Source: Squalus acanthias
Taxonomy: Eukaryota
Length of the DNA: 64,000 nt
Assembly (NCBI GenBank): GCA_030390025.1
Contig: CM059431.1
Coordinates: forward strand, 96,164,001 to 96,228,000
Direction of reading: 5' to 3'
Position numbers and translations under genes: made by a program. Every line of letters starts with the position of its first letter. Within the stretch, counting starts at the first letter, position 1. Under the pieces are notes generated by a model. The model saw only the letters and a program-made list of their open reading frames with translations. It had not been told where the DNA came from and did no database searches. Positions 187 through 60,200 of this stretch are shown here, in pieces.

Positions 187-477
187 TAGATAGGGGGAAA
201 CTTTTTCCTCTAGTGGCGGAGTCCAGAACAAGGGGGCATAAAATTTGAGCTTGATTGTTGATGGGAGATGTCAGGTAGCAATTCTTCACCCAAAGGATAG
301 TGGAAATCTGGAACTCTCTCCCCCAAAAAGCTGTTGAGGTTGTTGTTAGGCAAGGGTATTAAGGGATATGGAACCAAGGTAGGTAAAAGAAGTTAAGATA
401 CAGATCAGCCATGATCCACTTGAATGGCGGAACATCCTCAAGCGGCTGAATGGCCTACTCCTGTTCCTATGTTCCTA
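187..477 (+). mobile_element. CR1 LINE 3' end
   Basis: Encodes FPLVAESRT...FFTQR..WNSLP remnants; 3'UTR gaatggcctactcctgttcctatgttc. Confidence 0.85.
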
Positions 478-659
478 AAAAGATGTAGAAATTCAGATGT
501 GCTGCAACTGTGGGAACATAGTATTGTTTCTTGCTATGAAAAATGCATAATATCAAGTGAGATACAAGAATTATGCTAAGTTATGGTTAGTACTAGAGAA
601 GAAAGTAGTACCAGAGGCGGAAGTAGCACCATATTAGTAATGAGCAGACTAAGAAAAAC

Positions 660-2750
660 TCAAAAATGGGTTTAGAATGCATGTACGTAAATGCACAAAG
701 TGTGGTGAATAAGGTTGGTGAGCTACAAGCACAATTAGCCATGTGGCAATATGATGTTGTGGCAATAACGGAAACATGACTTAAAAAAGGTGAGGACTGG
801 GCACTTAATATTCAAGGGTACAAGGGATTCAGAAAAGATAGGGAAGGAAAAAAGGGAGGTGGGGTGGCAGTGCTGATTAAGGAAGACATTGTAGTGTTGG
901 AAAGGGAGGATGTTCCAAGGACAGAATCCATTTGGTTAGAGTTCAGGAGCAAAAAGGGTATGATCATGCTATTGGGGGTATTCTACAGGCCTCCAAATAG
1001 TGAGAGGGAGGTAGAGGAGCAAATCTGCAGGGAAATTGGTGATATTGGCCCAATTAGGAAGGAGGCATTGCTGGATCTGGTGCTGGGGAATGAGGTGGGC
1101 CAGGTCGACCAAGTGTCTGTGGGAGAACACTTGGGTACAAGTAATCATCGTTTCATAAGATTTAGATTAGCAATGGAGAGGAGAAAGGAACAATCTAGAG
1201 TGGAACTTCTAAACTGGAATAGGGCTAACTTCAATGGGATGCGAAAGGATCTAGCCAGGGTAAAATGGAACCAAAAACTGACAGGAAAAACTGTAACAGA
1301 ACAATGGGAGATCTTTAAGGAGGAGATGTTCCAAGTATAGGCTAGGTACATTCCAACAAGAGGGAAGGGTAATGGAACCAAAACAAGGGCTCCTTGGATG
1401 ACGAGATAGAGATGACGATGAAACAAAAAAAGAGGGTGTATGATGCATGTCAGGTGAATTCTTCAAGGGAGAACCAGACCAAATACAATAAGTTGAGAGG
1501 GGAAGTGAAGATGAAAAGAAGATTGGCAAAGAGAGAATATGAGAGTAGAATGGTGGTTAACATAAAAGGGAAACCAAAAATCTTCTACCGGCATGTAAAT
1601 AGTGAGCAGGTAGTAAGAGGTGGGGTGGGGCCTATTTGGGACAAAGAAGGTGATATATGCTTAGAGGCGTAGGGCAAGGATAGAATACTCAATGAGTACT
1701 TTGTATCGGTGTTTACTAAGGAGGTGGATGCTGACAAAATATCAGTAGAAGTGGAAAAGGTAGAAGCAATGGAAGGGGTGAACATTGATAGACAGGATGT
1801 ACGAGAAAGGCTGGGTATGCTTAGAGTGGATAAGTCACCTGGTCCAGATGGCTTGCATCCCAGGTTGCTAAGGGAATTGGGGGAGGAGATAGCGGAAGGA
1901 CTTGCTATAATTTTCCAATCTTCGCTAGATGCGGGGAAGGTGCCTGAGGATTGGAAAGTGGCAAATGTGAAACCATTGTTCAAGAAAGGGTGTAAGGACA
2001 ATCCTAGTAACTACAGGTCGGTCAGTTTAACATCAGTGGTGGGTAAAGTTTTAGAAACAATAATCAAGGAAACAATTAACAGGCACTTGGAGAGATTTAA
2101 GCTAATTAAGGAGAGCCAACACGGATTTGTAAAAGGCAGATCGTGTTTGACTAATCTAATTGAATTTTTGATGAAGTAACAGGGAGCATTGATGAAGGGA
2201 ATGCAATGGATGTTGTCTACATGGATTTTCGGAAGGCATTTGACAAAGTACCTCATAGAAGGCTGGTTAACAAAATTGAGGCTCATGGAATAGGTGGGTC
2301 AGTTACAGCTTGGATAAGGAATTGGCTTAAGGACAGAAAACAGCGAGTTGTGGTAAATGGCTGTCTTTCAGACTGGAGGATGGTAGATAGTGGTGTTCCC
2401 CAAGGGTCAGTGCTGGGACCACTGCTTTTTTTGATAAATATAAATGACCTGGATATTGTAATACAGAGTAGAATTTCTAAATTTGCCGATGACACCAAAT
2501 TTGGGGGTGTGGCAAACAGTGATGATGATACCAATCGACTGCAACAGGACATAGAAAGGCTAGCAGAATGGGCAGACAAGTGGCAGCTGGAAGTGTGAGG
2601 TGATGTTTTTTGGCAGAAGGAACAAGGAGAGGCAATATACACTTAATGGCACAGTTTTAAAGAGTGTGCAGGGACAGAGGGACCTGGGAGTTAATGTGCA
2701 GAGGTCCCTGAAGGTGGCGGAACATATTGAGAGAGTGGTTAGCAAAGCTT
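660..2750 (+). mobile_element. Decayed CR1 ORF2 (APE endonuclease + RT), interrupted by an RTE and resuming at ~7046-7080
   Basis: ORF pieces with [36 protein letters not shown] and FADD motifs, broken by stops/frameshifts; after the RTE the sequence resumes with [11 protein letters not shown]. Confidence 0.95.
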
Positions 2751-4392
2751 GCCATTGGACCAAGACCTTGCTCTGTCAAGCCCATGTGTTAGCTGGTGTG
2801 CAACGGCCACCCCACGTTAAAAGAATTCACACACAGGCATCTTGCACCCTTTAAAATTAAGTTCAGGACCTGGAACGTCAGGACCCTCATGGACAACCCC
2901 AACAGTGACAGAACAGAACGCCGTACTGCTATCGTTGCCCGGGAGCTCAGACGTTTCGACATAGACATTGCTGCCCTAAGCGAGACTCGGCGGGCAGGGG
3001 AAGGCCAGCTCAAGGAGCAAGGCGGTGGCTACACCTTCTTCTGGAAAGGCAAAACTGAAGAAAAACGCCGCCTCCATGGGGTAGGCTTCACCATAAAAAA
3101 TGAGCTAGTTGGACATCTCAGAGGCTCCCTTTGCAGAATAAACGAATGCCTCATGACTCTTCGGCTCACCCAAGCCCGGAACCAGTGCGCTAAATTCATC
3201 AGTGCATACGCCCCAACACTGGAATCCACAGACAAGACCAAAGAGGAATTCTACTCCAGCCTCGAACAATCCCTGTCCTGAGTCCCAACGGGCGACAAGC
3301 TGATCCTCCTTGGCGACTTTAACGCCAGAGTTGGAAAGGACACAGATCTCTGGGGAGATGTGATCGGCAGAGAGGGGGTAGGGAAAGCCAACTCCAACGG
3401 TACCCTCCTCCTGACGAAATGCTTAGAACATGGTCTTGTCATAACCAACACCTTATTCCATCAGAGAGACAAGTACAAGGCTTCATGGCGACACCCTCGC
3501 TCCAAGCACTGGCATCTGCTGGACTACATAATCGTCCGAGCGAGCGACCGCAAGGACGTCCACATCGCCCGCGCCATGACAGGAGCTGACGACTGCTGGA
3601 CAGACCACCGTCTAATCCGCTCTGTCATCTCCATCAACGTAGCCCCAAAACAGTAGCGGCAGAAGAAGCAATGCCACAGTAAAATCAACGCTGGAGCACT
3701 CAAAGACCCTGCTAAGAATGCCCTATTCAGCCTGTGCCTCACAACCAACCTGGCAATTCCCAGTGATTCTGAGACACAGAGGGTTGGATTTTGAATCTGG
3801 GGTCGGGTTGGTGTCGGGAATCACACATTCTGGCTTGTGAACCCGCCTCCAACGAGATGTGGCCAACCCACTGTATTTTCCCTTGATTGACCTTGTTGAG
3901 CCCGCCCGGTGGGCTCAGCAGGCCAATTAAGGGCCACCCGGCAACAGGTGACGTCACAGATTGACATTTCATCTGTCAAGAGCTTTTGACAGATGAAATA
4001 TCAGCGTTTGACAGCTCTGTGAAGCTGTCAAACACTCACAATATGATTTCTAACTTCAGTCCTTCCTCTCAGGCTGAGTTAGAAATCATTCCAGCACAGA
4101 AAACAGAAGGCTGCAGTTTTTGACAGAACCACGGCTTTCCTGCTTTCTGTGCCGGTGAGATTTCTAACTCCCGAGAACTGAAGGGCTGACACCTGCAGGA
4201 GGAAGTTAAGGTAAGTAAAACTTTTTCCAACACTTAGCACTTACCTTACACACTTACCTCTGCACACATGCACCCATCACTCACCTGCCCATCAGACATA
4301 TCGACCCCTCCAACCCCTGCAGACCCACGGCCCGCCCCGATAACTTGGCGTGGCTGCCACCTGTCGGGAAGCCCACACTTTTCTTTTTAAAA

Positions 4393-4554
4393 GTGAGAAG
4401 TCGCACAACACCAGGTTATAGTCCAACAGTTTTATTTGAAATCACAAGCTTTCGGAGCGGCTGCTCCTTCGTCAGGTGAAGTAAAGGAATACAAATCGAC
4501 AAAGCATATTTGTCCTTTTGTCCACCCCAGTCCAACACCGGCATCTCCGCATCA
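4393..4554. mobile_element. 162-bp non-coding retro-insertion (Penelope-terminus-like) carrying a hammerhead motif
   Basis: Exact 14-bp TSD ttttctttttaaaa (4379-4392 / 4555-4568); contains an HHR core on the minus strand. The Penelope assignment is inference. Confidence 0.8.
4442..4479 (-). ncRNA. Minimal type-I hammerhead ribozyme motif
   Basis: Minus strand reads UCAC-CUGACGA-A-GGAGC(AGCC)GCUCC-GAAA-GCUU-GUGA: intact core, 5-bp helix II, palindromic AGCU helix III, 4-bp helix I. Confidence 0.8.
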
Positions 4555-7149
4555 TTTTCTTTTTAAAATAGGGATTATGCAAAAAACTGCCTGTTACTAA
4601 TCCCTTCCTGCCTCGGGGAGTCGGGTTCCAGCACGTCGGGTACCCGCCGCCAGAGAAACTGGCATGGAGGCGGGTTGGGGTCGGGACCCCCGAATCTGCA
4701 ACTTTAACCCCCCCCCGCCTCCAAAGGGCATTGAAAATCCAGCCCAGAGTGTCCACAGCGCCTGGTCTGCACTCAAGGCCTCCATAATCAGCACCTGTGA
4801 AGAGACGCTCGGTCACTCGACCAGGAAACACCAAGACTGGTTCGACGAGAACGACCAGGAGATCCAGGAGCTAATAAGCTGCAAGCACAAGACATTCCTG
4901 ATCTGGAAACAGCAACAGAACTCGAGAGCAAGAAAGCAGCTCTACAGACACCTGAAGGCCGAGTTCCAACAAAAATCTCGTGACCTAAAGAATAGATGGT
5001 GGGTGGAGAAAGCGCAGGAGATCCAGCAGCTAGCCGACAACCACGACGTGCGTGGATACTTTAGAGCAGTCAAGACCACCTACGGCCCAAGGTCCTACCC
5101 CATTGCGGGCCAAGAACGGAGAGGTACTCATCAAGGACAGAGAGGCAGTTAGTGCCCGCTGGAAGGTGCACTTCGAAGATCTCCTTAACCGAGACTCTGT
5201 CTTCGATGTGAGTGCCCTCAACTCCATCCCGCAGCATGCTGCCCGCCACCACCTCCGCACAACCCCAGCCCGGCATGAGGTTGAAAAGAGCATCTGACAA
5301 CTGAAGAACAACAAGGCCTCAGGAGCAGATGGATTCCCTGCCGAGGTGCTAAAGCATGGTGGCGAAGCACTATTGGCGTGAATACATGAACTCATTGCTC
5401 TTATCTGGAAGGAGGAGAGCATGCCAGGTGATCTCAGAGATGCTGTAATCGTGACCATCTTCAAGAAAGGTGACAAGTCCAATTGCGGTAATTAAAGAGG
5501 AGTTCCCCTGCTGTCTGCCACAGAGAAAGTCATCGCAAGAATCCTCCTCAATCGCCTTCTCCCAGTGGTAGAAGAGCTCCTCCCATAGTCGCAATGCGGA
5601 TTCCGCCCACTAAGGGGCACAATGGACATGATCTTCACCGCGCGTCAATTACAAGAGAAATGCAGGGAACAGCACCAACCGTTGTACATGGCCTTCTTTG
5701 ACCTCACAAAGGCCTTCGACATTGTCAACCGTGAGGGATTATGAGTGTCCTCCTCAAATTCGGCTGCCTCAAAAGTTTGTCACCATCCTCTGCCTGCTTT
5801 ACGACAACATGCAAGCCGTGATCCTGACCAATGGATCCACCACAGACCCCATTCACGTATGGACCTTGGTCAAGCAAGGCTGTGTCATCGCAGCAATGCT
5901 CTTCTCGATCTTTCTTGCTGCAATGCTCCATCTCACCCTCAGTAAGCTGGAATGGAGCTAATCTACAGAACAAACGGGAAACTGTTCAACCTCCGTCGCC
6001 TGCAGTCCACATCCAAGGTCGTCCCATCCTCTGTCGTTGAATTACAGTACGCAGACGATGCTTGGGTCTGCGCACACTCGGAGGTCGAGCTCCAAACCAT
6101 CGTTAACAGCTTCACCGAAGCATATGAGTGCATGGGCCTTACACTAAACATCCGTAAAACAAAGGTCCTCTACCAACCTGCCCCCGCCACACAGTACTGC
6201 TCCCCGATTATCAAAATCCATGACGAGGCCTTGGACAAGGTGGACCACTTTCCATACCTTGGGAGCCTACTGTCGACAAGGGCAGACGTCGATGACAAAG
6301 TCCAACACTGCCTTCAGTGTGCCAGTTCAGCCTTCGGTCGCCTGAGGAAGAGAGTGTTTGAAGGCCAGGACCTCAAACCCAGCACCAAGCTCATGGTCTA
6401 CAGAGCAGTAGTGATACCCGCCCTCCTGTATGCTTCAGAGGCATGGATCATGTACAGCAGGCACCTCAAATCACTGGAGAGGTACCACCAACGCTGCCTC
6501 CGCAAGAGCCTGCAAATCCATTGGCAGGATAGGCGCACCAACGTCAGTGTTCTCGGCAGGCCAACATCTCCAGCATCAAAGCTTTGACCACGCTCGATCA
6601 GCTCCGATGGACGGGCCACATTGTCCGCATGCCCAATACAAGACTCCCAAAGCAAGCACTCTACTCAGAGCTCCAACACGGCAAGAGAGCCAGGTGGGCA
6701 GAGGAAACGTTTCAAGGACACCCTCAAAGCCTCCTTGAAAAAGAGCAACATCCCCACCGACACCTGGGAATCCCTGGCCCAAGACCACACAAAGTGGAGG
6801 AGAAGCATCTGGGAAGGAGCCGAACACCTTGAGTCTCTTCACCGGGAGCAAGCGGAAGCCAAGTGCAAGCAGCGGAAGGAGCGCACGTCAACCCAAGAAC
6901 CCCACCCACCCGCCCCTTCAACCATCATCTGCCCCACCTGTGACAGAGATTGTAGGTCCCGCATTGGACTCATCAGTCACCTGAGAACTCATTTTTAATG
7001 TGGGAGCAAGTCATCCTCGGTTCCGAGGGACTGCCTAAGAAGAAGATAAAGCTCTGGTTAGACCCCATTTAGAATACTGCAATCAGGTCCTATCCCACCA
7101 GATTAAGGCCCACCTGCAATTCCTTCTCTACCCACTCCCGCATCATTAC

Positions 7150-11287: not shown

Positions 11288-12435
11288 CTCATGGTAATGG
11301 GGGTAATATATTAGCATGGCTTGAGGATTAGTTAATGGACAGAAAACAGAGAGTAGGAATAAACGGGACTCTTTCAGGTTGGCAGGCTGTAACTCGCGGG
11401 GTACCGCAAGGGTCAGTGCTTGGGCCTCAGCTATTCACAATCTACATCAATGATTTACAATCTATATTAATGACTTAGATGAAGGGACTGAGTGTATTGT
11501 ATCCAAGTTTGCTGATGATACAAAGTTAGGTGGGAAAGTAAGCTGTGAGGTGGATGCAAAGTGGTTGCAGAGAGATATAGACAGGTTGACTGAGTGGGCA
11601 AAAACATGGCAAATGGAATACAATGTGGGAAGTGGGAAGTTATCCACTTTGGTAGGAAAAACAAAAAAAGCAGAATATTTTTTGAATGGTGAAATACTGG
11701 GAAATGTTTGCACTCAGAGGGACCTGGGTGTCCTTGTACATGAATCACAGAAAGTTAACATGTAGGTACAGCAAGCAATTAGGAAAGCAAATTGTATTTT
11801 GTTACAAAGGGATTAGAGTAGAAGAGTAAAGAAGTCTTACTACAATTATATAGGACGTTGGTGAGGCCACACCTGGAGTACTGTGTACAGTTCTGGTCTC
11901 CTTACCGAAGGAAAGACATACTTGCCTTAGAGGGAGTGCAGTGTAGGTTCAAAGGACTGGTTCCTGGGATGAGGGGATTGCCCTGTGAGGAGAGATTGAG
12001 TAGACTAGGTCTATATTCCTTAGAGTTTAGAAGAATGAGAGGTGATCTAATTGAAACATATAAAATTCTTAAGGGGCTTGACAGGGTTAGTGCTGGGAAA
12101 ATGTTTCCCCTGGCTGGGGAATCTAGAACACGGGGTCACAGTCACAGAATAAGGGGTCGGCCATTTAGGACTGAGATGAGGAGAAATTTCTTCACTGAAA
12201 GGGTTGTGAATCTTTGGAATTCTCTACCCCAGACAGCTGTGGCTGCTCAGTCATTGAATATATTCTAGACAGTGGTCGATAAATTTTAGGGAACGAAGGA
12301 AATTAAGGGATATGGGAATAGTGCGGGAAGGTGGAGTTGAGGTAAAAGATCAGCCATGATCTTGTTGAATGGCAGAGCAGGCTTGAAGGACCAAATGACT
12401 TCCCCCAGCTCCTATTTCTTATGTTCTTATGTTCT
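11288..12435 (+). mobile_element. 5'-truncated CR1 LINE
   Basis: RT FADD through LVRPHLEYC and RNFFTERV; tail (ttcttatg)n. Confidence 0.95.
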
Positions 12436-14187: not shown

Positions 14188-15078
14188 TTCAGAAAATGCT
14201 GGAAATACTCAGCAGGTCAGGCAGCATCTGTGGAGAGAGAAACAGAGTTAACGTTTCAGGTCGATGACCTCTCATTAGAACTGGAAAAAGTTAGAGATGT
14301 AACAGATTTTAAGCAAATGCAGGGAAAGGAGGAAAGAACAAAAGAGAAGGTCTGTGATAGGATGGAAGGCAGTTGAGATTAAATGACAAAAGGGATGATG
14401 GTGCAAGGCAAAAGGAGATGATAATGGGACAAGTTAAGAAACAAAAGATGAGTCTAGATGAGGTGTAAATGGAAATGGCAGAATCATCAACAGCTGCCAT
14501 GTGAAAAAATTGGGGCAGAGGTTATGGTCTGAAATTGTTGAACTCTATGTTGAGTCCAGAAGGCTGTAAAGTGCCTAATCGAAAGATGAGGTGCTGTTCC
14601 TCGAGCTTACATTGAGCTTCATTGGAACAGTGTAAGAGCCTGAGAACGGAGAGGTCAGAGTGGGAGTGGAGCAGAGAATTAAAGTGACAGGTGACCGGAA
14701 GCTCAGGGTCATACTTACGGACTGAATGGAGATGTTCCACAAAGCGGTCACCCAATCTGCATTTGGTCTCCCCAATGTAGAGGAGACCGCATTGTGAGCA
14801 GCAAATACAGTATACTAAATTGCAAGAAGTACAAGTAAATCGCTGTTTCACCTGGAAGGAGTGTTTGGGACCCTGGACAGTGGGAAGGGAGGAGGTAAAA
14901 GGGCAGCTGTTGCATCTCCTGCGCTTGCATGGGAAGGGGCCATGGAAAGGGGAGGGGGTGTTGGGGGTGATTGAGGAGTAGACCAGGGTGTCGCGGAGGG
15001 AGCGGTCCCTTCGGAATGCTGAAAGGGGAGGTGAGGGGAAGATGTGTCAGGTGGTGAGATCATGCTGGAGATGGCAGC
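14188..15078 (-). mobile_element. Penelope-like element 3' part (GIY-YIG endonuclease + terminal repeat)
   Basis: ORF 14522-14851 with LVYCICCSQCGLLYIGET...LGTLQPSGLN; same family as 21383-24345. Confidence 0.93.
14246..14282 (-). ncRNA. Hammerhead motif with core mutation (probably inactive)
   Basis: AGUU-CUAAUGA-G-AGGUC(AUC)GACCU-GAAA-CGUU-AACU; the core reads CUAAUGA instead of CUGANGA. Confidence 0.6.
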
Positions 15079-17256
15079 ATTGGGAAAATGCTGGAGTCTA
15101 TCATTAAGGAAGTGATAGCAGGACATTTAGAAAATCATAATATAGTCAAGCAGAGTCAGCATGGTTTTATGAAAGGGAAATCATGTTTGACAAATTTGCT
15201 GGAGTTCTTTGAGGATGTAACGAACAAGGTGGATAAAGGGGAACCAGTAGATGTTGTGTATTTGGATTTCCAGAAGGCATTCGATAAGGTGCCACATAAA
15301 AGGTTACTGCACAAGATAAGGGGCCAAAAATTCGGCACTTGCCGGGTGAGTACGCTGTGTACTCACCCGTAAGGCCTCCTAAAGAGCCGGTTTCCTGCAT
15401 GCACTGCGCATGCGTGGGAAACCGGAACTTCCGGTCTCATGAAGGGAGTGGTTCAGAGGTGAACCGCGTGCGCGGTAGAGGCTGCGCGCACGCAGCGAAC
15501 TTAGGTTTTTTTTCAGGTTTCTCCGGGAGGGTAAGTATTGAACAAGCTGCGCTTTTAAAAAGGAGGCGCAAGACCCGTTTTCAACAAGGTAAGTGGTTAA
15601 TTAATTACAATTTAAAAAAAATTTCTACAGGTTTATCTTTTTTAGATACTTTAAAGAAAGGTAAGTTTATTTTTAGCACTGTTAAAAAGTATTTTAATTT
15701 TTTCAAAAATTAAATTTTTGTTTAAAGTAGTTAATTTATTTAACTTATAGTTATTTTAAAAATGTGATCGTTTTTTAAAAAATGTATTTGAAGTTTAGGT
15801 GTTGTTTTGGGGCCAATTTCAATTCATAGATTTGACAGATCCTGTCAAATCTATGAATGAAAGATGGTCTGCTGCCATTGGCTCTCCATGGCCCACGTGA
15901 TCCCAGGGGACGCATCACACTAACTACGCCCCTGGGATACACAAGCACTGCGCGCCGGCAGTTGGGGGAGGCCCAGGAGCTGGAGTCCCCGTGGGCCCAG
16001 TGGCCAACGGCAGGCGCGGTAGGTAGGTGCGCGCGGGATCCTTGCACCCGCGGGAAGCCAGGGAGCCTAATTTCTGGGCCAAGAGCTCACGGGGTTGGGG
16101 GTAATATATTAGCATGGATAGAGGATTGGCTAACTAACAGAAAACAGAGAGTCGGGATAAATGGGTCATTTTCAGGTTGGCAAACTATAACTAGTGAGGT
16201 GCTGCAGGGATCAGTGCTGAGGCCTCAACTTTTTACAATCTATATTAATGAGACTTGGATGAAGGGACGGAGTGTAATGTAGCCAAATTTGCTGATGATT
16301 GAGGAGTGGACCAGGGAGGGAGCGGTCCCTTCGGAATAGGTGGGAAAGCAAATTGTGTGGAGGACGCAAAGAATCTCCAAAGGGATATAGATAGGCTAAG
16401 TGAGTGGGCAAAAATCTGGCAAATGGAGTTTAATGTGCGAAAATGCAAGGTTATCCACCTTGGTAGGAAAAATAAAAAAGCAAATTAATATTTAAATGGG
16501 GAGACATTACAAAATGCTGAGGTACAGAGGGATCTGGGGGTCCTTGTACATGAATCACAAAAAGTTAGCATGCAGGTGCAGCAAGTAATTCGGAATGCAA
16601 ATGGAATGTTGGCCTTTATTTCAAAGGGAATGGAGTATAAAAGTAGGGAAGTCCTGTTACAACTGTACAGGGCGTTGGTGAGACCACACCTGGAGTACTG
16701 CGTACAGTTTTGGTCTCCTTATTTAAGGAAGGATATACTTGCATTGGAGGCAGTTTCAGAAAAGGTTCACGAGGTTGATTCCGGAGATGAAGGGGTTGTC
16801 TTATGAAGAAAGGTTGAGCAGGTTGGGCCTATACTCATTGGAGTTTAGAAGAATGAGAGGGGATCTTATTGAAACATATAAGATTCTGAAGGGGCTTGAC
16901 AGGGTAGATGCAGAGAGGATGTTTCCCCTCGTGGGGGAATCTAGAACTAGGGGGGCATAATTTCAGAATAAGGGGAAACCCTTTTAAATCGGAAATGAGG
17001 AGGAATTTCTTCTCTCAGAGGGTCGTGAATCTTTGGAATTCTCTTCCCCAGAGAGCTGTGGAGGCTAGGTCATTGAATATATTTAAGATGGAGATAGACA
17101 GATTTTTGAAAGTTAAGAGAATCAAGGGTTATGGGGAACGGGCAGGGAAGTGGAGTTGAGGCCAAGATCAGATCAGCCATGATCTTATTGAATGGCGGAG
17201 CAAGCTCGAGGGGCCAAATGACCTACTCCTGCTCCTACGTCTTATGTTCTTATGTA
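15079..17256 (+). mobile_element. 5'-truncated CR1 LINE containing a MITE and a short Penelope-derived insert
   Basis: QHGFMKGKSCLTNL through GYGERAGKWS; tail (tcttatgt)n. Confidence 0.95.
15321..16080. mobile_element. Harbinger-like MITE
   Basis: TIRs gggccaaaaattcgg / cctaatttctgggcc (12/15) and AAG TSD; removal restores CR1 LLHKI|RAHGVGG, as seen uninterrupted in the copy near 58400. Confidence 0.88.
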
Positions 17257-21060: not shown

Positions 21061-21382
21061 TAAAATTGTATATTAACAGAATAACATGCCTTAAAATCAT
21101 TTAGTTGTTTCATCTCTTGAAACCTGCAACACTTTTGTATCACATAAAATTGCCTGTACTAATAATCTTTGGGCTCAAAAGATCTTCAAAAAAATGAGTG
21201 TTCAGGTTAAAATCTCCAATTCCAGTGGGTTTTGAAATGTGTTGTGCTGTTTAGTGTCTATTCATTGTGGAAATAAATAATAAATAAAACATCCCACTTC
21301 AAGGATAAAGTATTTTGGAGGGAGAGGAACTGGATCAAATAAATCAGCCCTTTTATTTTTAAGGCCGACAGTTCAATAATTG

Positions 21383-24345
21383 AAACAACAACAGAAAACG
21401 CTGGAAAAACTCAGCAGGCCAGGCAACATCCGTGGAGAGAGAAACAGAGTTAACGTTTCAGGTCGAAACCCTTCGTCAGAACTGAGAAAAAAGCAAGAAA
21501 TGAAACAGATAAAAAAGCAAGGGGGAGGCTGGGGGGAGGAATAAAAGAACAAAAGGGGTGGTCTATGGTAAGTAGAGACATTAAGAGATGCTCAAGGCAA
21601 GACGAGATGGTAATAGGACAGGTTAAGAAACAAAAGGTGGCTAGAAGTATGAAGTGTGAAATGCTGGCAGAATGAAAGACAGCTGCCGTGGGGGGAGAGA
21701 GAGAAAAATAAGGGAAAAGGCACAAACCAAAAGGGTGGATAAAATGTATATATGTGGTAGGGGCCGAGGTTATGATCTGAAATCGTTGAACTCGATATTG
21801 AGTCCGGAAGGCTGTAAAGTGCCTAATCGGAAGATGAGGTGCTGTTCCTCGAGCTTACGCTGAGCTTCCGTGGAACAATGCACGAGGCCGAGGACGGTGA
21901 GGTCTAAGTGGGCGTGGAGAGGTGAATTAAAATGACAAGCAACCGGAAGCTCGGGGTCACCCTTACGGACTGAACGGAGGTGTTCTGCAAAGCGGTCACC
22001 CAATCTGCGTTTGGTCTCCCCAATGTAGAGGAGACCACATCGTGAGCAGCGAATACAGTATACTAGATTGCAAGAAGTACAAGTAAATCGCTGTTTCACC
22101 TGGAAGGGGTGATTGGGCCCTGGAGAGTGGGAAGGGGGGATGTATAAGGGCAGGTGTTGCATCTCCTGCGCTTGCACGGGAAGGTGCCGGGCGAGGGGGA
22201 AGGGGTGCTGGGGGTGATAGAGGAGTGGACTAGGGTGTCTCGGAGGGAGCGGTCCCTACGGAATGCTGAAAGGGGAGGTGAGAGGAAGATACGTTTGGTG
22301 GTGGGATCACGTTGGAGGTGGCGGAAATGGCGGAGGATGATCCATTGAATGTGGAAGCTGGTGGGGTGAAAGGTGAGGACAAGGGGAACTCTATCGTGGT
22401 TCTGGGAGGGAGGGGCCGGGGTGAGGGCAGAAGTGCGGGAGATAGAACGGACACGGTCGAGGGCCGTGTCGACCACGGTGGAGGGGAATCCTCAGTTGAG
22501 GAAAAAGGAAGACATGTCGGCAGCACTGGTATGGAAGGTGGCATCGTCGGAGCAGATGCGGCAGAGACGGAGAAACTGGGAGAAGGGAATAGAGTCCTTA
22601 CAGGAGGCGGGGTGGGAGGAAGTGTAGTCCAGGTAGCTGCGGGAGTCAGTGGGCTTGTAGTGAATGTTGGTCAATAACCTATCCCCAGAGATGGAGACGG
22701 AGAAGTCGAGGAAGGGAAGGGAAGAGTCGGAGATGGACCATGTGAAGGTGAGGGAAGGGTGGAAATTGGAGGCAAAGTGAATGAAATTGTCTAGTTCAGG
22801 GCAAGAGCAGGAAACGGCACTGATACAGTCGTCAATGTACCGGAAAAAAGAGGTGAGGGAGGGGACCCGAGTAGGACTGGAACAAAGAGTGTTCCACATA
22901 TCCCACGAAAAGGCAGGCATTGCTAGGACCCATGCGGGTACCCATAGCAACACCTTTGATTTGGAGGAAATGAGTGGAGTCAAAGGAGAAGTTGTTCAAT
23001 GTGAGAACAAGTTCAGCCAGGCGGAGGAGGGTGGTGGTGGATGGGGACTGGTTGAGCCTCTGTTCAAGGAAGAAGCGGAGCGCCCTCAGGCCACACTGGT
23101 GGGGGATGGAGGTGTAGAGGGATTGTACGTCCATGGTGAAAAGGAGGCGGTTGGGGCCAGGAAACTGGAAACTGTTAAAGTGGCGGAGGGCGTCAGAGGA
23201 ATCGCGGATGTAGGTGGGAAGAGACTGGAGAAGGGGAGAAAAAATAGAATCGAGATAGGAAGAGATAAGTTCCGTGGGGCAAGAACAGGCTGAAACGATG
23301 GGTCTACCAGGGCAGTCCTGTTTGTGGATCTTGGGAAGGAGGTAGAAGCGGGCTGTGCGGGGTTGGGGATCTATGAGGTTGGCGGCTATGGAGGGAAGAT
23401 CTCCAGAGGAGATGAGGTCAGTGACAGTCTTGGAAACGGTGGCTTGATATTCGGTAGTGGGGTCATGGTCCAGGTGGAGGTAGGAGGAGGTGTCGGAGAG
23501 TTGGCGTTCAACTTCCGCTAGGTAGAGGTTGGTTCGCCAAACAACAACAGCACCACCCTTGTCAGCAGGTTTAATGACAATGTTGGGGTTGGATCGGAGA
23601 GAATGGAGTGCTGCAAGTTCAGAGGGAGGTAGGTTGGAGTGAGTGAGGGGAGCAGAGAAATTGAGATGGCCGATGTCACGGCGGCAGTTAGCAATGAAAA
23701 GATCTAGAGAGGGTAACAGGCCAGAGGGAGGGGTCCAGGTGGAACGAGAATTCTGAAAGCGGGAGAAAGGGTCAGCCGTGCGGGGGGGAAGACTCCTGGC
23801 CAAAGAAGTGGGCACGGAGACGAAGGCGGCGGAAAAAGAGCTCAGCATCGTGCCGAGCTCGAAATTCATTGAGGTGGGGGCGTAAGGGGATGAAGCTCAG
23901 GCCTTTGCTGAGGACTGATCGTTCAGGGTCAGAGAGGGGAAGGTCAGAGGGGATAGTGAAAACGCGGCAGGGGGTGATATTGGGAGAAGGGGGGTCAGAG
24001 GAAAGTGAAGGGGAAGAAGGTTCCGGAGGGGAGTTAGTGTCCAAGAGTTGTTGAAGCTTGCGATCCTTGACATCGGAAAGGAAGAAGAAAAGTTTGTTGC
24101 TGAAGCGTCGGATGAGTCTAAGGATGAAATGAAACTGTGGACCCGGATAGCTTTGAGATAGAGTGCGCCGGTGCTGCTGAAAAGTGAGGTCGAGAGTGTT
24201 CATGTGGCGCCGCATGGCGTTGAGCGTGGATCTCAAGATGTGGCGAGAGCAGTAGTTCGAGGAACGATGAATATCTTGGAGATATTTGTAATCCTGGGTG
24301 GATCCGAAACACGAAGGGTGAAAGTTTAGTTGGAATCCACGTGGG
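21383..24345 (-). mobile_element. Penelope-like retroelement, ~3 kb, frameshifted RT + GIY-YIG
   Basis: IKPADKGGAVV, RPIVS, DVQSLYTSIP, GVAMGT, RYIDD and GIY-YIG (LVYCI..YIGET) motifs; 7-bp TSD ataattg (21376-21382 / 24346-24352). Confidence 0.95.
21448..21483 (-). ncRNA. Minimal type-I hammerhead ribozyme motif in the Penelope terminus
   Basis: AGUU-CUGACGA-A-GGGU(UUCG)ACCU-GAAA-CGUU-AACU: intact core, palindromic ACGU helix III, helix I AGUU/AACU. Confidence 0.8.
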
Positions 24346-24368
24346 ATAATTGCTTTTTTCTGGTTTAC

Positions 24369-30600: not shown

Positions 30601-30722
30601 ATAAACAGAAAATGCTAGAAACACTCAGCAGGTCAGGCAGCATCTGTGGAGAGAGAAACAGAGTTACTGTTTCTGGTTAATGAAAGGTAATCGAACTGAA
30701 ACATTAACTCTGTTTCTCTCTG
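30601..30722. mobile_element. Penelope-terminus fold-back fragment with degenerate hammerhead
   Basis: gagagaaacagagtta ... taactctgtttctctc inverted arms; taatgaaaggtaatcgaactgaaa remnant. Confidence 0.7.
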
Positions 30723-32897: not shown

Positions 32898-32992
32898 ATA
32901 AAAACAGAAAATGCTGGAAATACTCAGCAGGTCAGGCAGCATCTGTAGAGAAAGAAACAGAGTTAACGTTTTAGGTCGATGACCCTTTGTCC
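32898..32992 (-). mobile_element. Penelope terminal fragment (truncated hammerhead)
   Basis: Near-identical to 14190-14270. Confidence 0.8.
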
Positions 32993-33371
32993 CTCTGAAA
33001 GGGGAACCGCAGTCACAGTTGGTCGGTACTGGACTTCATACGTTAAAACCAGGCAGCACAGACGGACCTGAACCAAACCAAGAAATCGCATAAAGGGCAG
33101 TGGGCTCAGTGCTTGGGTGTTTCTCACAGGGCACATTGTTCTAAATTCAGCTCAGCACCCACATTTCTAAACCACTCCCTAAGCTTGAACTCAATAAAAG
33201 GAGAGTTTTCATAGAATTATAGAAATTACAGCACAGGAGGCTTTCACTATTTACCCACAGTAAGGTCACCAGGTTTCTCTTACACCTTTACTGGCTGCTC
33301 CTCTCTCAGTACTGCTCCCACTCATCATGTTACTGCTGCTGCTCCCGGAGAAAATGCGGAGTTACAACAAC

Positions 33372-44893: not shown

Positions 44894-45022
44894 ATAAAAA
44901 CAGAAAATGCTGGAAATACTCAGCAGGTCAGGCAGCAGATGCTGCCTGACCTGATGAGTATTTCCAGGATTTTCTGTTTTTATTTCAGATTTCCAGCATC
45001 CGCAGTATTTTGCTTTTGTATT
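44894..45022. mobile_element. Penelope-terminus fold-back mini-element
   Basis: ~45-bp inverted arms; exact 13-bp TSD agtggtctatgta (44881-44893 / 45023-45035). Confidence 0.88.
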
Positions 45023-57265: not shown

Positions 57266-60200
57266 AAGAACATAAGAACATAAGAAATAGGAGCAGGAGT
57301 AGGCCATTTGGTCCCTCGAGCCTGCTCTGCCAATAAATAAGATCATGGCTGATCCGATCTTGGCCTCAACTCCAATTTCCTGCCCACTCCCCATAATCCT
57401 TGATTCCCCTGAAGTTCAAATATCTGTCTATCTCTGCCTTGAATATATTCAATGACTCCGCCTCCACAGCTCTCTGGGGTAGAGAATTCCAAGTATTCAC
57501 GACCCTCTGAGAGAAGAAATCCCTCCTCATCTCCGTTTTAAATGGGCGACCCCTTATTCTGAAATTATGCCCCCTAGTTCTAGATAACCCCACGAGGGGA
57601 AACATCCTCCCTGCATCTACCCTGTCAAGCCCCCTCAGAATCTTATATGTTTCAATAAGATCACCTCTCATTCTTCTAAACTCCAATGAGTATAGGCCCA
57701 ACCTGCTCAACCTTTCCTCATAAGACAACCCCTTCATCCCAGGAATCAACCTCGTGAACGTTCTCTGAACTGCCTCCAATGCAAATATATCCTTCCTTAA
57801 ATAAGGAGACCAAAACTGCACGCAGTACTCCAGATGTGGTCTCACCAGCACCCTGTACAGTTGCAGCAAGACTTCCCTACTTTTATACTCCATCCCCCCT
57901 GCAATAAGGGCCAACATTCCATTTGCTTTCTTAATTACTTGCTGTACCTGCATGCTAACATTTTGTGTTTCATGTACAAAGACCCCCAGATCCCTCTGTA
58001 CCGCAGCATTATGTAGTCTCACTCCATTTAAATAATAATTTGCTTTTTCATTCTTCCTTCCAAAGTGGATAACCTCACATTTTCCCACATTATACTCCAT
58101 CTGCCATATTTTTGCCCACTCACTTAACTTATCTATATCCCTTTTCAAACTCTGTGTGTCCTCCTCACAACTTGCTTTCCCACCTATCTTTGTATCATCA
58201 GCAAATTTGGCTACAGTACACTCGGTCCCTTCATCCAAGTCATTAATATAGATTGTAAATAGTTGAGGCCCCAGCACTGATCCCTGTGGCACGCCACTAG
58301 TTACAGTTTGCCAACCTGAAAATGACCCATTTATCCCGACTCTCTGTTAGTTAGCCAATCCTCTATCCATGCTAATATATTACCTCCAACCCCGTGAGCT
58401 CTTATCTTGTGCAGTAACCTTTTATGTGGCACCTTATCGAATGCCTTCTGGAAATCCAAATACACTACATCTACTGGTTCCCCTTTATCCACCCTGCTCA
58501 TTACATCTCAAAGAACTCTAGTAAATTTGTCAAACACGATTTCCCTTTCATAAAACCATGTTGACTCTATTTGATTGTAGTATGATTTTTTAAATGTCCT
58601 GCTATTACTTCTTTAATAATGGATTCCAGCATTTTCCCAATGACAGATGTTAGGCTAACTGGCCTATAGTATCCTACTTTCTGTCTCCCTCCTTTCTTGA
58701 ATAGGGGTGTTACATTTGCGGTTTTCCAATCCGCTGGGACCTCTCCAGAATCCAGGGAATTTTGGTAGATTACAACCAACAGATCCACTATCTCTGCAGC
58801 CACTTCTTTTAATACCCTAGGATGCAGGCCATCAGGTCTAGGGGATTGTCGGCCTTTAGTCCCATTAGTTTGCTGAGTACTTTTTCTCTCGTGATAGTCA
58901 TTGTTTTAAAGTTCCTCCCTCCCTATAGCCCCTTGATTATCTATTATTATTGGGATGCTTTTAGTGTCTTCTACCGTAAAGACCGATACAAAATATTTGT
59001 TCAAAGTCTCTGCCATTTCCCTGTTTCCCATTATTAATTCCCTCGTCTCATTCTCTAAGAGACCAACATTTACTTTAGCTACTCTCTTCCTTTTTATATA
59101 CCTGTAGAAGCTCTTACTGTCTGTTTTTATATTTTTTACTAGTTTACTCTCATAATCTATCTTCTCCCTCTTTGTTATTTTTTTGGTCATCCTTTGCTGG
59201 TTTCTAAAAATTTCCCAATCCTCTGGCCTACCACTAATCTTCATAACATTGTATGCCTTTTCTTTCAATTTGATACCATCCTTAACTTCCTTAGTTAGCC
59301 ACGGATGGTTCATCCTTCTCGTAGAGTCTTTCTCACTAACCTTTGCTGAGAGTTATGAAATATCTCCTTAAATGTCTGCCATTGCTTATCTACCGTCTTA
59401 CCCTTTAATCTATTTTCCCAGTCCACTTTAGCCAACTCTGTCTTCATACCTTTGTAATTGCCTTTATTTAAGTTTAGGACACTAGTTTCAGACCCAAGTT
59501 CTTACCCTCAAACTGAATTTGAAATTCTATCATGCTATTATCACTCTTCTCCTTTACAATGAGATCATTAATTAATCCGGTCTTATTACACATTACACAT
59601 TACCAGATCTAAAATAGCCTGCTCCCTGGTTGGTTCCACAATGTATTGTTCGAAGAAACTATCCCGAATACATTCTATGAACTCGTCCTCAAGGCTACCC
59701 TTGCCAATTTGATTTGTCCAACCTATATGAAGATTAAATCGGCCATGATTATTGCAGTACCTTTCTTACAAGCCCCCATTATTTCTCGATTCATACTCTG
59801 TCCTACAGTATAGCTACTGTTCGGGGGTCTATAGACTACTCCCACCAGTGACTTCTTTCCCTTACTATTTCTTATCTCCACCCAAACTGATTCTACATCT
59901 TGAACTTCTGAGCCAATATCATTTCTCACCACTGCACTGATCTCATCCTTTATTAACAGAGCTACCCCACCTCCTTTTCCTATCTGCCTATCCTTCTGAA
60001 ATGTCAAATACCCCTGAATATTCAGTTCCCAGCATTGGTCACCTTGCAACCACTTCTCTGTAATGGCTATCAGATCATGCCCATTTATTTCTATTTGTGC
60101 CGTCAACTCATCTATCTTGTTACGAATGCTGCGTGCATTCAGATAAAGCACCTTTAATTTTGTCTTTTTACCATTTTTCTCTACTCTGACTCTATTTGCT

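Follow-up and report, generated by a model that had tools for sequence, protein, structure and literature searches.

Minimal type-I hammerhead motifs (min-HHRs) of Penelope-like elements (PLEs) were defined by Cervera & De la Pena in 2014 (Mol Biol Evol; PMC4209133). In the passages of that paper drawn on here, the motifs have CUGANGA and GAAA boxes, a single unpaired nucleotide between A9 and 10.1 and a short helix I (4-5 bp), and helix III is reduced to a palindromic 15.2-16.2. They lie in the pseudo-LTR (pLTR) of an element with RT and GIY-YIG, and occur as thousands of mostly solitary copies with some close opposite-strand pairs; several consensus families with compensatory changes may be found in one genome. 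Processing of PLE transcript ends by the hammerhead was put forward in the same passages as a hypothesis. An extra residue between A9 and 10.1 is also present in viroid hammerheads (De la Pena & Flores 2001, as cited in PMC4209133). Unlike the motif described below, these come from circular RNA pathogens rather than retroelements, belong to type III and have complete helices together with tertiary contacts. The Rfam hammerheads (type I/III, HH9, HH10 and type II) have the catalytic core consensus in common with our motif, but the Rfam models are built around a closed helix III, loop-loop contacts or both, and the motif has neither. The elements themselves, when EN-bearing (EN+), are characterized in the relevant parts of PMC8557442 by pLTR tandems, heavy 5' truncation, inverted 5'-truncated neighbours and an optional 30-40-bp tail; PLE clades that lack hammerheads are described there as proliferating well. 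The only PLE tested biochemically is Poseidon PAc of Anolis (Frangieh et al. 2024, Mob DNA; PMC11167929), in which cleavage was protein-assisted, with C3/G8 rescue. Mutants of its hammerhead left insertion in vitro unaffected, and none of the RNA-seq reads had an end at the cut site.

The window analyzed here, a stretch of 64,000 nucleotides from Squalus acanthias, contains a min-HHR motif at 21448..21483. It is read on the minus strand, in the direction of its element, from 21483 to 21448 as AGUU-CUGACGA-A-GGGU(UUCG)ACCU-GAAA-CGUU-AACU; the reverse complement of 21448-21483 in DNA letters is AGTT CTGACGA A GGGT TTCG ACCT GAAA CGTT AACT. From its 5' end, the motif comprises the 5' strand of helix I (21483-21480), the CUGACGA box (21479-21473), an unpaired A (21472), helix II with its loop (21471-21460), the GAAA box (21459-21456), C15.2, G16.2 and U16.1 (21455-21453), U17 (21452) and the 3' strand of helix I (21451-21448). 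The predicted cut falls between 21452 and 21451. Order and spacing of the two boxes are right for a PLE min-HHR. Helix I (AGUU/AACU) has 4 bp, with mismatches at the next two positions, and helix II (GGGU/ACCU) has 4 bp including a G.U pair and carries the loop UUCG. Helix III is not closed; the motif has only a self-complementary ACGU stub, followed by U17. Since the core, the extra A, the palindromic stub and U17 all belong to the published definition, as given in the passages of PMC4209133, the motif is a further member of a class that is already known. A sequence-only reading of this DNA had proposed a hammerhead-type motif in PLE sense, downstream of a GIY-YIG ORF, and its sequence, strand and register were confirmed. 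Its assignment as a hammerhead-type motif belonging to a PLE is thus supported.

A second PLE family (family 2, the family of the motif at 21448..21483 being family 1) is represented by a min-HHR at 4442..4479, also on the minus strand: TCAC CTGACGA A GGAGC AGCC GCTCC GAAA GCTT GTGA. Its helix I pairs TCAC with GTGA, its helix II has 5 bp (GGAGC/GCTCC), and its stub is AGCU, with U17 coming next. As had been noticed from the letters, the two motifs differ in helix I, helix II and 15.2/16.2 but keep the core, the extra A and U17. Between the families all helix pairs are held by different sequences; protein identity is only 24-41%, and the pLTR DNA cannot be aligned beyond words of 8-12 nt. In a count of helix pairs, 98.7% of cells were paired and 8 of 11 pairs had changed on both sides, for rows that were chosen by a descriptor requiring pairing and that represent two lineages. 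The covariation claimed earlier amounts essentially to one contrast between two lineages rather than to a series of independent changes. This comparison of sequences supports the view that the min-HHR architecture has been kept between deeply diverged PLE families.

Some positions vary within this architecture. In the parts of PMC4209133 concerned, G10.1-C11.1 is highly conserved, although not absolutely so, whereas the 4-bp helix II of the window motif starts with G.U and lacks this usual G-C pair; family 2, with its 5-bp helix, has G-C, and other family-1 subfamilies have A-U or G.U. Both the window motif and family 2 have A as the single unpaired nucleotide between A9 and 10.1, where other subfamilies have either G or A. 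Folding energies were also computed. The lowest-energy fold of the 36-nt window motif is not a hammerhead but a UGACG/CGUUA pairing of -6.7 kcal/mol that buries the core and the cut site, compared with -3.5 kcal/mol for helices I and II together. The motif has a folding z of -0.11 (81 of 200 shuffles fold as well), and the helix II region, 24 nt from CUGACGA to GAAA, is weak at -2.5 kcal/mol (z +0.44). For the family-2 motif the most stable fold consists of helices I and II, with z -2.06. Plain cofolding of two window motifs gave an extended duplex rather than a hammerhead dimer; as such a dimer is pseudoknot-like for the folding program, energy was taken for the helix III stub duplex only, which is -3.5 kcal/mol for ACGU of the window and -4.3 kcal/mol for AGCU of family 2.

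The PLE copy that carries the window motif runs from 24349 to 21382 on the minus strand and is 5'-truncated and frameshifted. Its coding region, RT with a C-terminal GIY-YIG in overlapping broken frames, was delimited by BLAST and Pfam at 21770..24349. It is followed by 286 nt of non-coding pLTR between the ORF stop and the hammerhead (21484..21769) and, from the predicted cut site to the 3' end of the insertion, by about 70 nt (21382..21451), the BLAST alignment with a full-length unit ending at 21382. Identity to a full-length genomic copy is 95.8% over unit positions 470-3420 (BLAST). The minus-strand ORF at 21770-22255 matches Pfam GIY-YIG (E 5.7e-05, 23.8 bits against a cut-off of 22.6), and the RT-like ORF matches RVT_1 with E 0.03. 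With the latter ORF, a PDB sequence search returned nothing at E<=1 and the ESM Atlas returned DUF8422/RVT_1 clusters only. Homologues at E<=1e-10 number 974 and have RVT_1, PF28514 (DUF8422), PF26215 and sometimes GIY-YIG. The ATG of the element (21429-21427) and its first codons lie inside 21382..21451, a segment that the copy profile shows to be common to nearly all truncated copies. By analogy with the internal RT initiation of the Anolis PLE (PMC11167929), reverse transcription likely initiates in this segment. The window copy is truncated at unit position 470, its ORF is split by frameshifts, and there is no intact partner motif nearby. It is a dead relic that is not itself under selection, and its motif is most probably inert. 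The earlier interpretation, a structure under selection that probably processes transcript ends, is supported in part only.

Full-length tandem units of the window family are about 3,193 nt long, with same-strand motif pairs 3,193-3,195 nt apart. Loci L063, L064 and L065 are such units, with the motif in both repeats. At L064 the ORF stop precedes the motif by 279 nt, and the next ATG follows it at 22 nt. The ORF there is uninterrupted over 955 codons, and its 955-aa product matches RVT_1 (E 5.1e-05, residues 478-605) and GIY-YIG (E 6.8e-04, residues 857-892), both below the Pfam cut-offs. A single ORF with RT and then a C-terminal GIY-YIG is the canonical EN+ PLE layout, and partial tandems or pLTRs, 5' truncation, adjacent inverted copies and an optional tail, also canonical traits of these elements, are all present. 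Insertions of the family stop about 70 nt beyond the predicted cut site, so that every 3' fragment carries the motif. In both families the copy profile shows a common 3' end with an optional extension of about 25-36 nt, which about half of the copies have, and the copies show a gradient of 5' truncation. Among the first 100 family-2 places listed, 16 head-to-head (-,+) pairs within 2 kb were counted by hand, versus 0 (+,-) pairs. PAc (PMC11167929) likewise has its motif at the pLTR-ORF junction, and the ends of its insertions lie beyond the motif at a short, fixed distance, with two alternative ends or an optional tail. In PAc, however, the ORF starts inside the motif, in stem II, and the cut falls 26 nt after the start codon, whereas here the ATG comes after the cut site, by 22 nt in family 1 and 91 nt in family 2. 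The insertion end lies 111-118 nt into the ORF in PAc, compared with a calculated value of about 46-75 nt here.

Other copies in the window, noted earlier at 14246, 30677 and 32960, had been taken for decayed ones, and core or box mutations and overlapping inverted wrecks bear this out. The minus-strand copy at 14246..14282, from a related subfamily with helix II AGGTC-ATC-GACCT, has CTAATGA (G5->A) and ends an older PLE fragment (about 14190-15083). The copy at 32961..32998, also on the minus strand, has lost the 5' box and has AAAA for GAAA (G12->A). At 30662..30709 two decayed, 5'-truncated copies stand head-to-head, at 30662-30699 on the minus strand and 30672-30709 on the plus strand, their arms overlapping in the helix II region. 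As several inversion junctions fall inside helix II, a side reading is that the helix II hairpin may serve as a fold-back or template-switch point that creates head-to-head inverted copies.

Motif occurrences were counted with descriptors of differing stringency. A strict descriptor (4 bp in helix I, 4 bp or more in helix II, Watson-Crick 15.2/16.2, U16.1 and H17) matched the window exactly twice, at 21448-21483 and 4442-4479, and gave 68 matches in the 265,579 bases examined, whereas none of 20 shuffles gave any. With the loose pattern CTGANGA-N(8-30)-GAAA alone there was no enrichment: it occurred 9 times in the window, where 5.79 were expected, and 18 of 100 shuffles reached 9. In the 3.7-Gb genome, the 28-mer haplotype of the window motif has 1,433 exact copies and 5,704 matches at <=3 mismatches, versus 0 for a reversed control, and the family-2 motif has 17,168 matches at <=3 mismatches, versus 0 for its control. 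A genome-wide pattern with A/T at 15.2/16.2 showed no enrichment (5,345 versus 4,930 for the reversed control), and its few hammerhead-like matches were decayed family-1 copies. Rfam gave no hammerhead match in the whole window at the gathering score and none to hammerhead families in 21380-21560 at E<=10; weak matches to Hrs1, TMV_UPD-PK3 and SMAD5-AS1_2 in that interval were rejected as noise. The family consensus was checked for the boxes and keeps CUGAYGA and GAAA, so that the hammerhead assignment is not undone by their loss. In the first 100 copies listed, taken by a downstream anchor only, a hand count found the box intact in 68.

A sister lineage with the core change U4->C has 1,831 exact copies, versus 1,433 for the canonical sequence, and has thus out-amplified it. 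The two lineages are otherwise nearly identical, with linked diagnostic substitutions in the C4 lineage. Full-length tandem units occur in the C4 lineage, among them L064, whose ORF proved on checking to be the uninterrupted one described above. The main-paper passages of PMC4209133 report U3-A8 core covariation and make no mention of U4C. According to the portions of PMC3088659 that bear on it, U4C 'considerably decreases activity in vitro', and a natural U4C viroid stayed infectious, so that the change need not abolish function. If the C4 lineage has transposed, canonical catalysis might be dispensable for PLE spread, or protein-assisted PLE hammerheads might tolerate C4, although this core change cripples ordinary hammerheads, a tentative proposition that we consider somewhat improbable. 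If catalysis were dispensable, the motif would be kept for another job, for example as an RNP landmark close to where RT begins.

The window motif is the min-HHR of an EN-bearing PLE pLTR, surviving in the 3' portion of a dead copy. An explanation that combines this identity and place with paired or protein-aided cleavage is the best overall, and we regard it as highly probable. In its favour are the register of the core positions, the PLE context, the tandem units with a motif in each repeat, the common 3' end with its optional extension, the excess of head-to-head pairs, the architecture kept between the two families and the C3/G8 rescue in Anolis. Against it stand the lack of Rfam hammerhead matches, the alternative lowest-energy fold, the G.U at 10.1-11.1, the more abundant U4->C lineage, the negative insertion and read-end results from Anolis, the hammerhead-free PLE clades that spread well, and the descriptor-based choice of the two-lineage rows in the pair count. 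As the motif is without a helix III of its own and has only the ACGU stub, cleavage after GUU would need two paired copies, in tandem units or in two RNAs, or else the protein of the element. It would presumably process multimers and read-through transcripts at a point directly 5' to the ORF. Public runs for the species, 17 in number and one of them recorded as RNA, were available as assembled contigs. In the four that were compared with the motif region, depth followed how many copies there are of the common 3' module, and neither joints nor accumulations of ends appeared; as such contigs cannot show RNA ends, this outcome is neutral on cleavage and expression.

Of the alternatives, the one that survives best is that the motif is kept non-catalytically, as an RNA landmark bound by RT/EN or as an ORF leader 22 nt upstream, with cleavage incidental or absent. 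The greater abundance of the U4->C lineage, with its full-length tandem units and one uninterrupted ORF, is in line with this, as are the spacing of roughly 70 nt that every copy keeps between motif and insertion end, the weak thermodynamics of the window variant and the reduced in vitro activity of U4C cited above from PMC3088659. The protein dependence of cleavage in Anolis, where hammerhead mutants do not alter insertion (PMC11167929), points the same way. However, the catalytic boxes are exactly what is kept at 24-41% protein identity while the helices change, which is the signature of a ribozyme and not of a protein-binding hairpin. The C3G/G8C rescue in the Anolis PLE (PMC11167929) likewise speaks for real ribozyme chemistry, and the infectious U4C viroid of PMC3088659 weakens the argument from C4. 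On this evidence non-catalytic retention appears rather unlikely.

We consider it very improbable that the locus is an active retrozyme-like unit giving small circular RNAs by hammerhead cleavage and ligation. Non-LTR retrozymes have been proposed, in the sections of bioRxiv 10.64898/2026.07.22.740005 relevant here, as derivatives of PLE pLTRs and are recorded there in one chondrichthyan genome sampled; elsewhere in this genome, L005 has a tandem motif pair 363 nt apart. The motif at our locus, however, stands alone, the nearest same-strand copies being decayed and 7-11 kb off, and loop-loop contacts such as canonical type-I retrozyme hammerheads possess are absent from it. The assembled contigs showed neither circular nor joined forms. 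Short tandem repeats, each with a complete type-I hammerhead, are not present at this locus, where a 131-nt query has no second copy nearby. L005 was rejected as a retrozyme; by BLAST it consists of two adjacent partial units (unit positions 65-404, then 43-236), a single case with no family. The weakest reading, a chance hammerhead look-alike without structural meaning in a hitch-hiking repeat, is hardly credible, for although neither the loose two-box pattern in the window nor the A/T pattern genome-wide is enriched and Rfam gives no match, the full descriptor far exceeds its shuffles over 265 kb, an identical architecture occupies the identical place in two unrelated-looking pLTRs, and the motif fits four features that, by the passages of PMC4209133, were no part of the search criteria used in 2014.

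Since hammerheads in PLEs were described in 2014, the window motif is real but ordinary. It adds one genome and two families to that class, and it independently confirms the class hallmarks: one additional nucleotide after A9, a palindromic stub standing in for helix III, a location where pLTR and ORF meet and a constant spacing from the insertion end. Of wider bearing are only the U4 and C4 sister lineages, which constitute a natural experiment, offering matched substrates with which to ask whether PLEs need cleavage or only the fold.

The motif at 21448-21483, which the sequence-only reading had placed in the element's sense, was borne out: the plus strand reads agttaacgtttcaggtcgaaacccttcgtcagaact, and the minus strand, AGTT-CTGACGA-A-GGGT-TTCG-ACCT-GAAA-CGTT-AACT, is identical to the RNA version proposed there. 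CUGACGA (21479-21473, minus strand) occupies hammerhead positions C3 to A9 and is followed by an extra A (21472, minus strand). Helix II has G.U, G-C, G-C and U-A pairs closed by the loop UUCG, GAAA supplies G12-A14 and A15.1, C15.2 and G16.2 are neighbours with no loop between them and are followed by U16.1 and U17, and helix I is the 4-bp AGUU/AACU. Exactly such minimal hammerheads were defined in pseudo-LTRs of metazoan Penelope-like elements (PLEs) by Cervera and De la Pena in 2014 (PMC4209133). In the available part of that paper, helix I has 4-5 bp and a palindromic 15.2-16.2 replaces helix III; the motifs occur in thousands of copies per genome, mostly solitary and very variable, in hosts that include fishes, coelacanth, Xenopus and reptiles; and the families are "full of covariations", with close pairs on opposite strands. 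Every feature stressed in the sequence-only reading, the extra A included, belongs to the definition as given there. The motif is therefore another member of a kind known since 2014, its sole departure being G.U in place of G10.1-C11.1. Rfam hammerhead models gave no score for it, as expected since it lacks a closed helix III.

The two boxes by themselves show no enrichment in the window (9 matches, with 5.79 expected; 18 of 100 shuffles give 9 or more). The full descriptor required helix I paired at 4/4 positions, a helix II no shorter than 4 bp whose loop did not exceed 8 nt, Watson-Crick 15.2/16.2, U16.1 and H17. In the window it matched only 21448-21483 (family 1) and 4442-4479 on the minus strand (family 2; TCAC-CTGACGA-A-GGAGC-AGCC-GCTCC-GAAA-GCTT-GTGA), and it found 68 places in 265,579 bases against none in 20 shuffles. 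In the 3.7-Gb assembly the family-1 28-mer had 5,704 matches at up to 3 mismatches, 1,433 of them exact, and the family-2 30-mer had 17,168 at up to 3 mismatches; both reversed controls gave 0. Copies were also sampled by anchor only, with 22 free positions before the downstream anchor GAAACGTTAACT, giving 70,521 matches against 394 for the control. In a hand count of the first 100 listed, CTGANGA was intact and in register in 68, so the family consensus retains both CUGANGA and GAAA, whose absence would have told against the sequence-only reading. Among the other 32, 5 carried U4->C, 7 had CTGACAA, as CpG decay would produce, about 8 lay at truncation or inversion junctions, and the remainder had scattered changes. 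A genome pattern search found no other large families with A or T at 15.2/16.2.

The decayed copies reported earlier are also present: 14246-14282 (minus strand, CTAATGA), 32961-32998 (minus strand, 5' box gone and AAAA instead of GAAA) and two copies overlapping head-to-head at 30662-30709. The first terminates an older fragment of a related PLE, 14190-15083 (minus strand), with 70-87% identity to positions 2487-3410 of the full-length unit. The near-identical sequences at 11512-11537 (plus strand) and 58176-58201 (minus strand) match CTGATGA…GGGAAA but lack helix II; rather than hammerheads, they are copies of a different repeat.

Around the window motif, ORF pieces run from 24389 to 21770 (minus strand) in several overlapping frames. 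The last matches Pfam GIY-YIG above threshold, and a 354-residue piece has a weak RVT_1 match (E 0.03) and a protein-atlas lead to DUF8422/RVT_1 clusters. Elsewhere in the genome, two same-strand motif pairs 3,193-3,195 nt apart (loci L063 and L064) are full-length tandem units. The L064 ATG-to-stop ORF is uninterrupted over 955 residues, and L063 has a 998-codon stop-to-stop frame across the matching region. In L064, RVT_1 (E 5.1e-05) and GIY-YIG (E 6.8e-04) both fall below Pfam's own cut-offs; the ORF has 974 homologues at E<=1e-10, bearing RVT_1, DUF8422, PF26215 and in part GIY-YIG, and its best named homologue is an uncharacterised carpet shark protein (71% identity). The L063 frame continues without a stop for 43 codons 5' of the ATG, through the hammerhead (…SDEGFRPETLTLFL…; compare window 21427-21483, minus strand), which may be chance. 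The window element (24349 to 21382) aligns to unit 470-3420 at 95.8% identity and is a 5'-truncated copy missing the upstream repeat and ~96 codons (about 290 nt) from the start of the ORF. The stop-to-hammerhead distance is 286 nt in the window and 279 nt in the unit, and an ATG (21429-21427) lies 22 nt past the predicted cut site. Copies share sequence until ~70 nt beyond the cut, and about half run 25-30 nt further. The nearest same-strand relatives of the window motif are decayed and 7-11 kb away, and the window copy is best seen as inert.

Family 2 has the same build, with a full-length candidate (L065) whose motifs are 3,120 nt apart, an ATG 91 nt past the cut, a common end ~57 nt past it and an optional extension of ~36 nt. 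The partial tandems, 5' truncation and optional tail of both families resemble the PLE anatomy described in the available part of PMC8557442, where 5' truncation is heavy, and so do the head-to-head pairs: among the first 100 listed family-2 places, a hand count found 16 (-,+) pairs within 2 kb and 0 (+,-). The fixed distance from motif to insertion end is consistent with reverse transcription starting internally, as demonstrated for an Anolis PLE (PMC11167929). Head-to-head copies are very frequent (in the window, 30662-30709 and 44909-44967). In several pairs, for example C1:1437235/1437251, 4009535/4009561 and 4077993/4078015, the two arms overlap within helix II or immediately 5' of it, which suggests that insertion involves fold-back or template switching at its hairpin. 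Immediately upstream of the minus-strand family-2 copy, the optional ~36-nt tail of family 2 (4519-4555, plus strand) points the opposite way, which puts the tail at the other insertion end; the call was made by eye from the copy profile. At L005:1431-1968, two canonical motifs lie on one strand 363 nt apart, in two adjacent partial units (unit 65-404, then 43-236); the pair could be an internally deleted mini-element. The available part of a 2026 preprint (bioRxiv 10.64898/2026.07.22.740005) puts the mean consensus length of retrozymes at 363 bp in the only chondrichthyan genome it sampled, a match that may be fortuitous.

The family-1 ORF and the family-2 element have only 24-41% amino-acid identity, and comparison of their non-coding repeats found nothing in common beyond 8-12-nt words. 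At the equivalent place, both families share the boxes, the extra A, a self-complementary stub (ACGU versus AGCU) and U17. The covariation claimed between them holds in that pairing is kept: 14 distinct variants have 98.7% of cells paired, versus 71.4% when shuffled and 14-50% with slid partners, and 8 of 11 pairs are altered on both sides. The rows were picked by a descriptor that requires pairing and stand for two lineages, so the count amounts in essence to a single deep contrast with a few minor ones, such as, in helix I of family 2, TCAC/GTGA versus TTAC/GTAA and, at 10.1-11.1 of family 1, A-U versus G.U. The claim of a selected structure is partly supported: the motif is conserved at family level, but the window copy itself is not under selection.

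What the motif is, where it sits in the element and that every 3' fragment inherits it are established. Cleavage would occur after GUU once the 4-bp stubs of two copies have paired, in a duplex predicted at only -3.5 kcal/mol, or with the element's protein aiding, and would release an RNA starting 22 nt before the ATG. The processing of transcript ends put forward in the sequence-only reading had been proposed, with a circular-RNA role, by Cervera and De la Pena, whose paper, in its available part, reports low in vitro activity by dimers or trimers only (PMC4209133). The Anolis hammerhead cleaved only with protein, with C3G/G8C rescue (PMC11167929). Several observations count against a catalytic role. 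The predicted lowest-energy fold of the window motif pairs UGACG with CGUUA across the cut site, hiding both core and cut site (-6.7 kcal/mol versus -3.5 for helices I and II; z -0.11); these modelled thermodynamics look unconvincing for a ribozyme, whereas the family-2 motif is predicted to fold into helices I and II (z -2.06). The alternative hairpin, predicted to be stabler than the hammerhead helices, could be an off-state or a mere sign of a poor ribozyme. In Anolis, hammerhead mutants left insertion in vitro unchanged and RNA-seq showed no reads with ends at the cut site (PMC11167929), and PLE clades lacking hammerheads thrive, according to the available part of PMC8557442. The 17 sequencing runs, all assembled contigs and one recorded as RNA, are neutral on cleavage: the four mapped gave only a copy-number profile of the shared module, with no ends or joints.

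The closest sister lineage (loci L051-L064) also counts against catalysis. It carries CCGACGA, a U4->C change, with linked diagnostic substitutions, and its exact 28-mer copies outnumber the canonical ones (1,831 versus 1,433). Both full-length tandem units examined belong to it, with CCGACGA in both repeats; among the first 100 listed of the 1,433 canonical places, no pair lay at the ~3.2-kb unit spacing. The abundance of this lineage means either that the core change is tolerated or that catalysis is not needed, because U4C considerably lowers activity in vitro and yet still permits viroid infectivity, as reported in the available part of PMC3088659. Among these findings, only the U4 and C4 pair of sister lineages merits follow-up at the bench.
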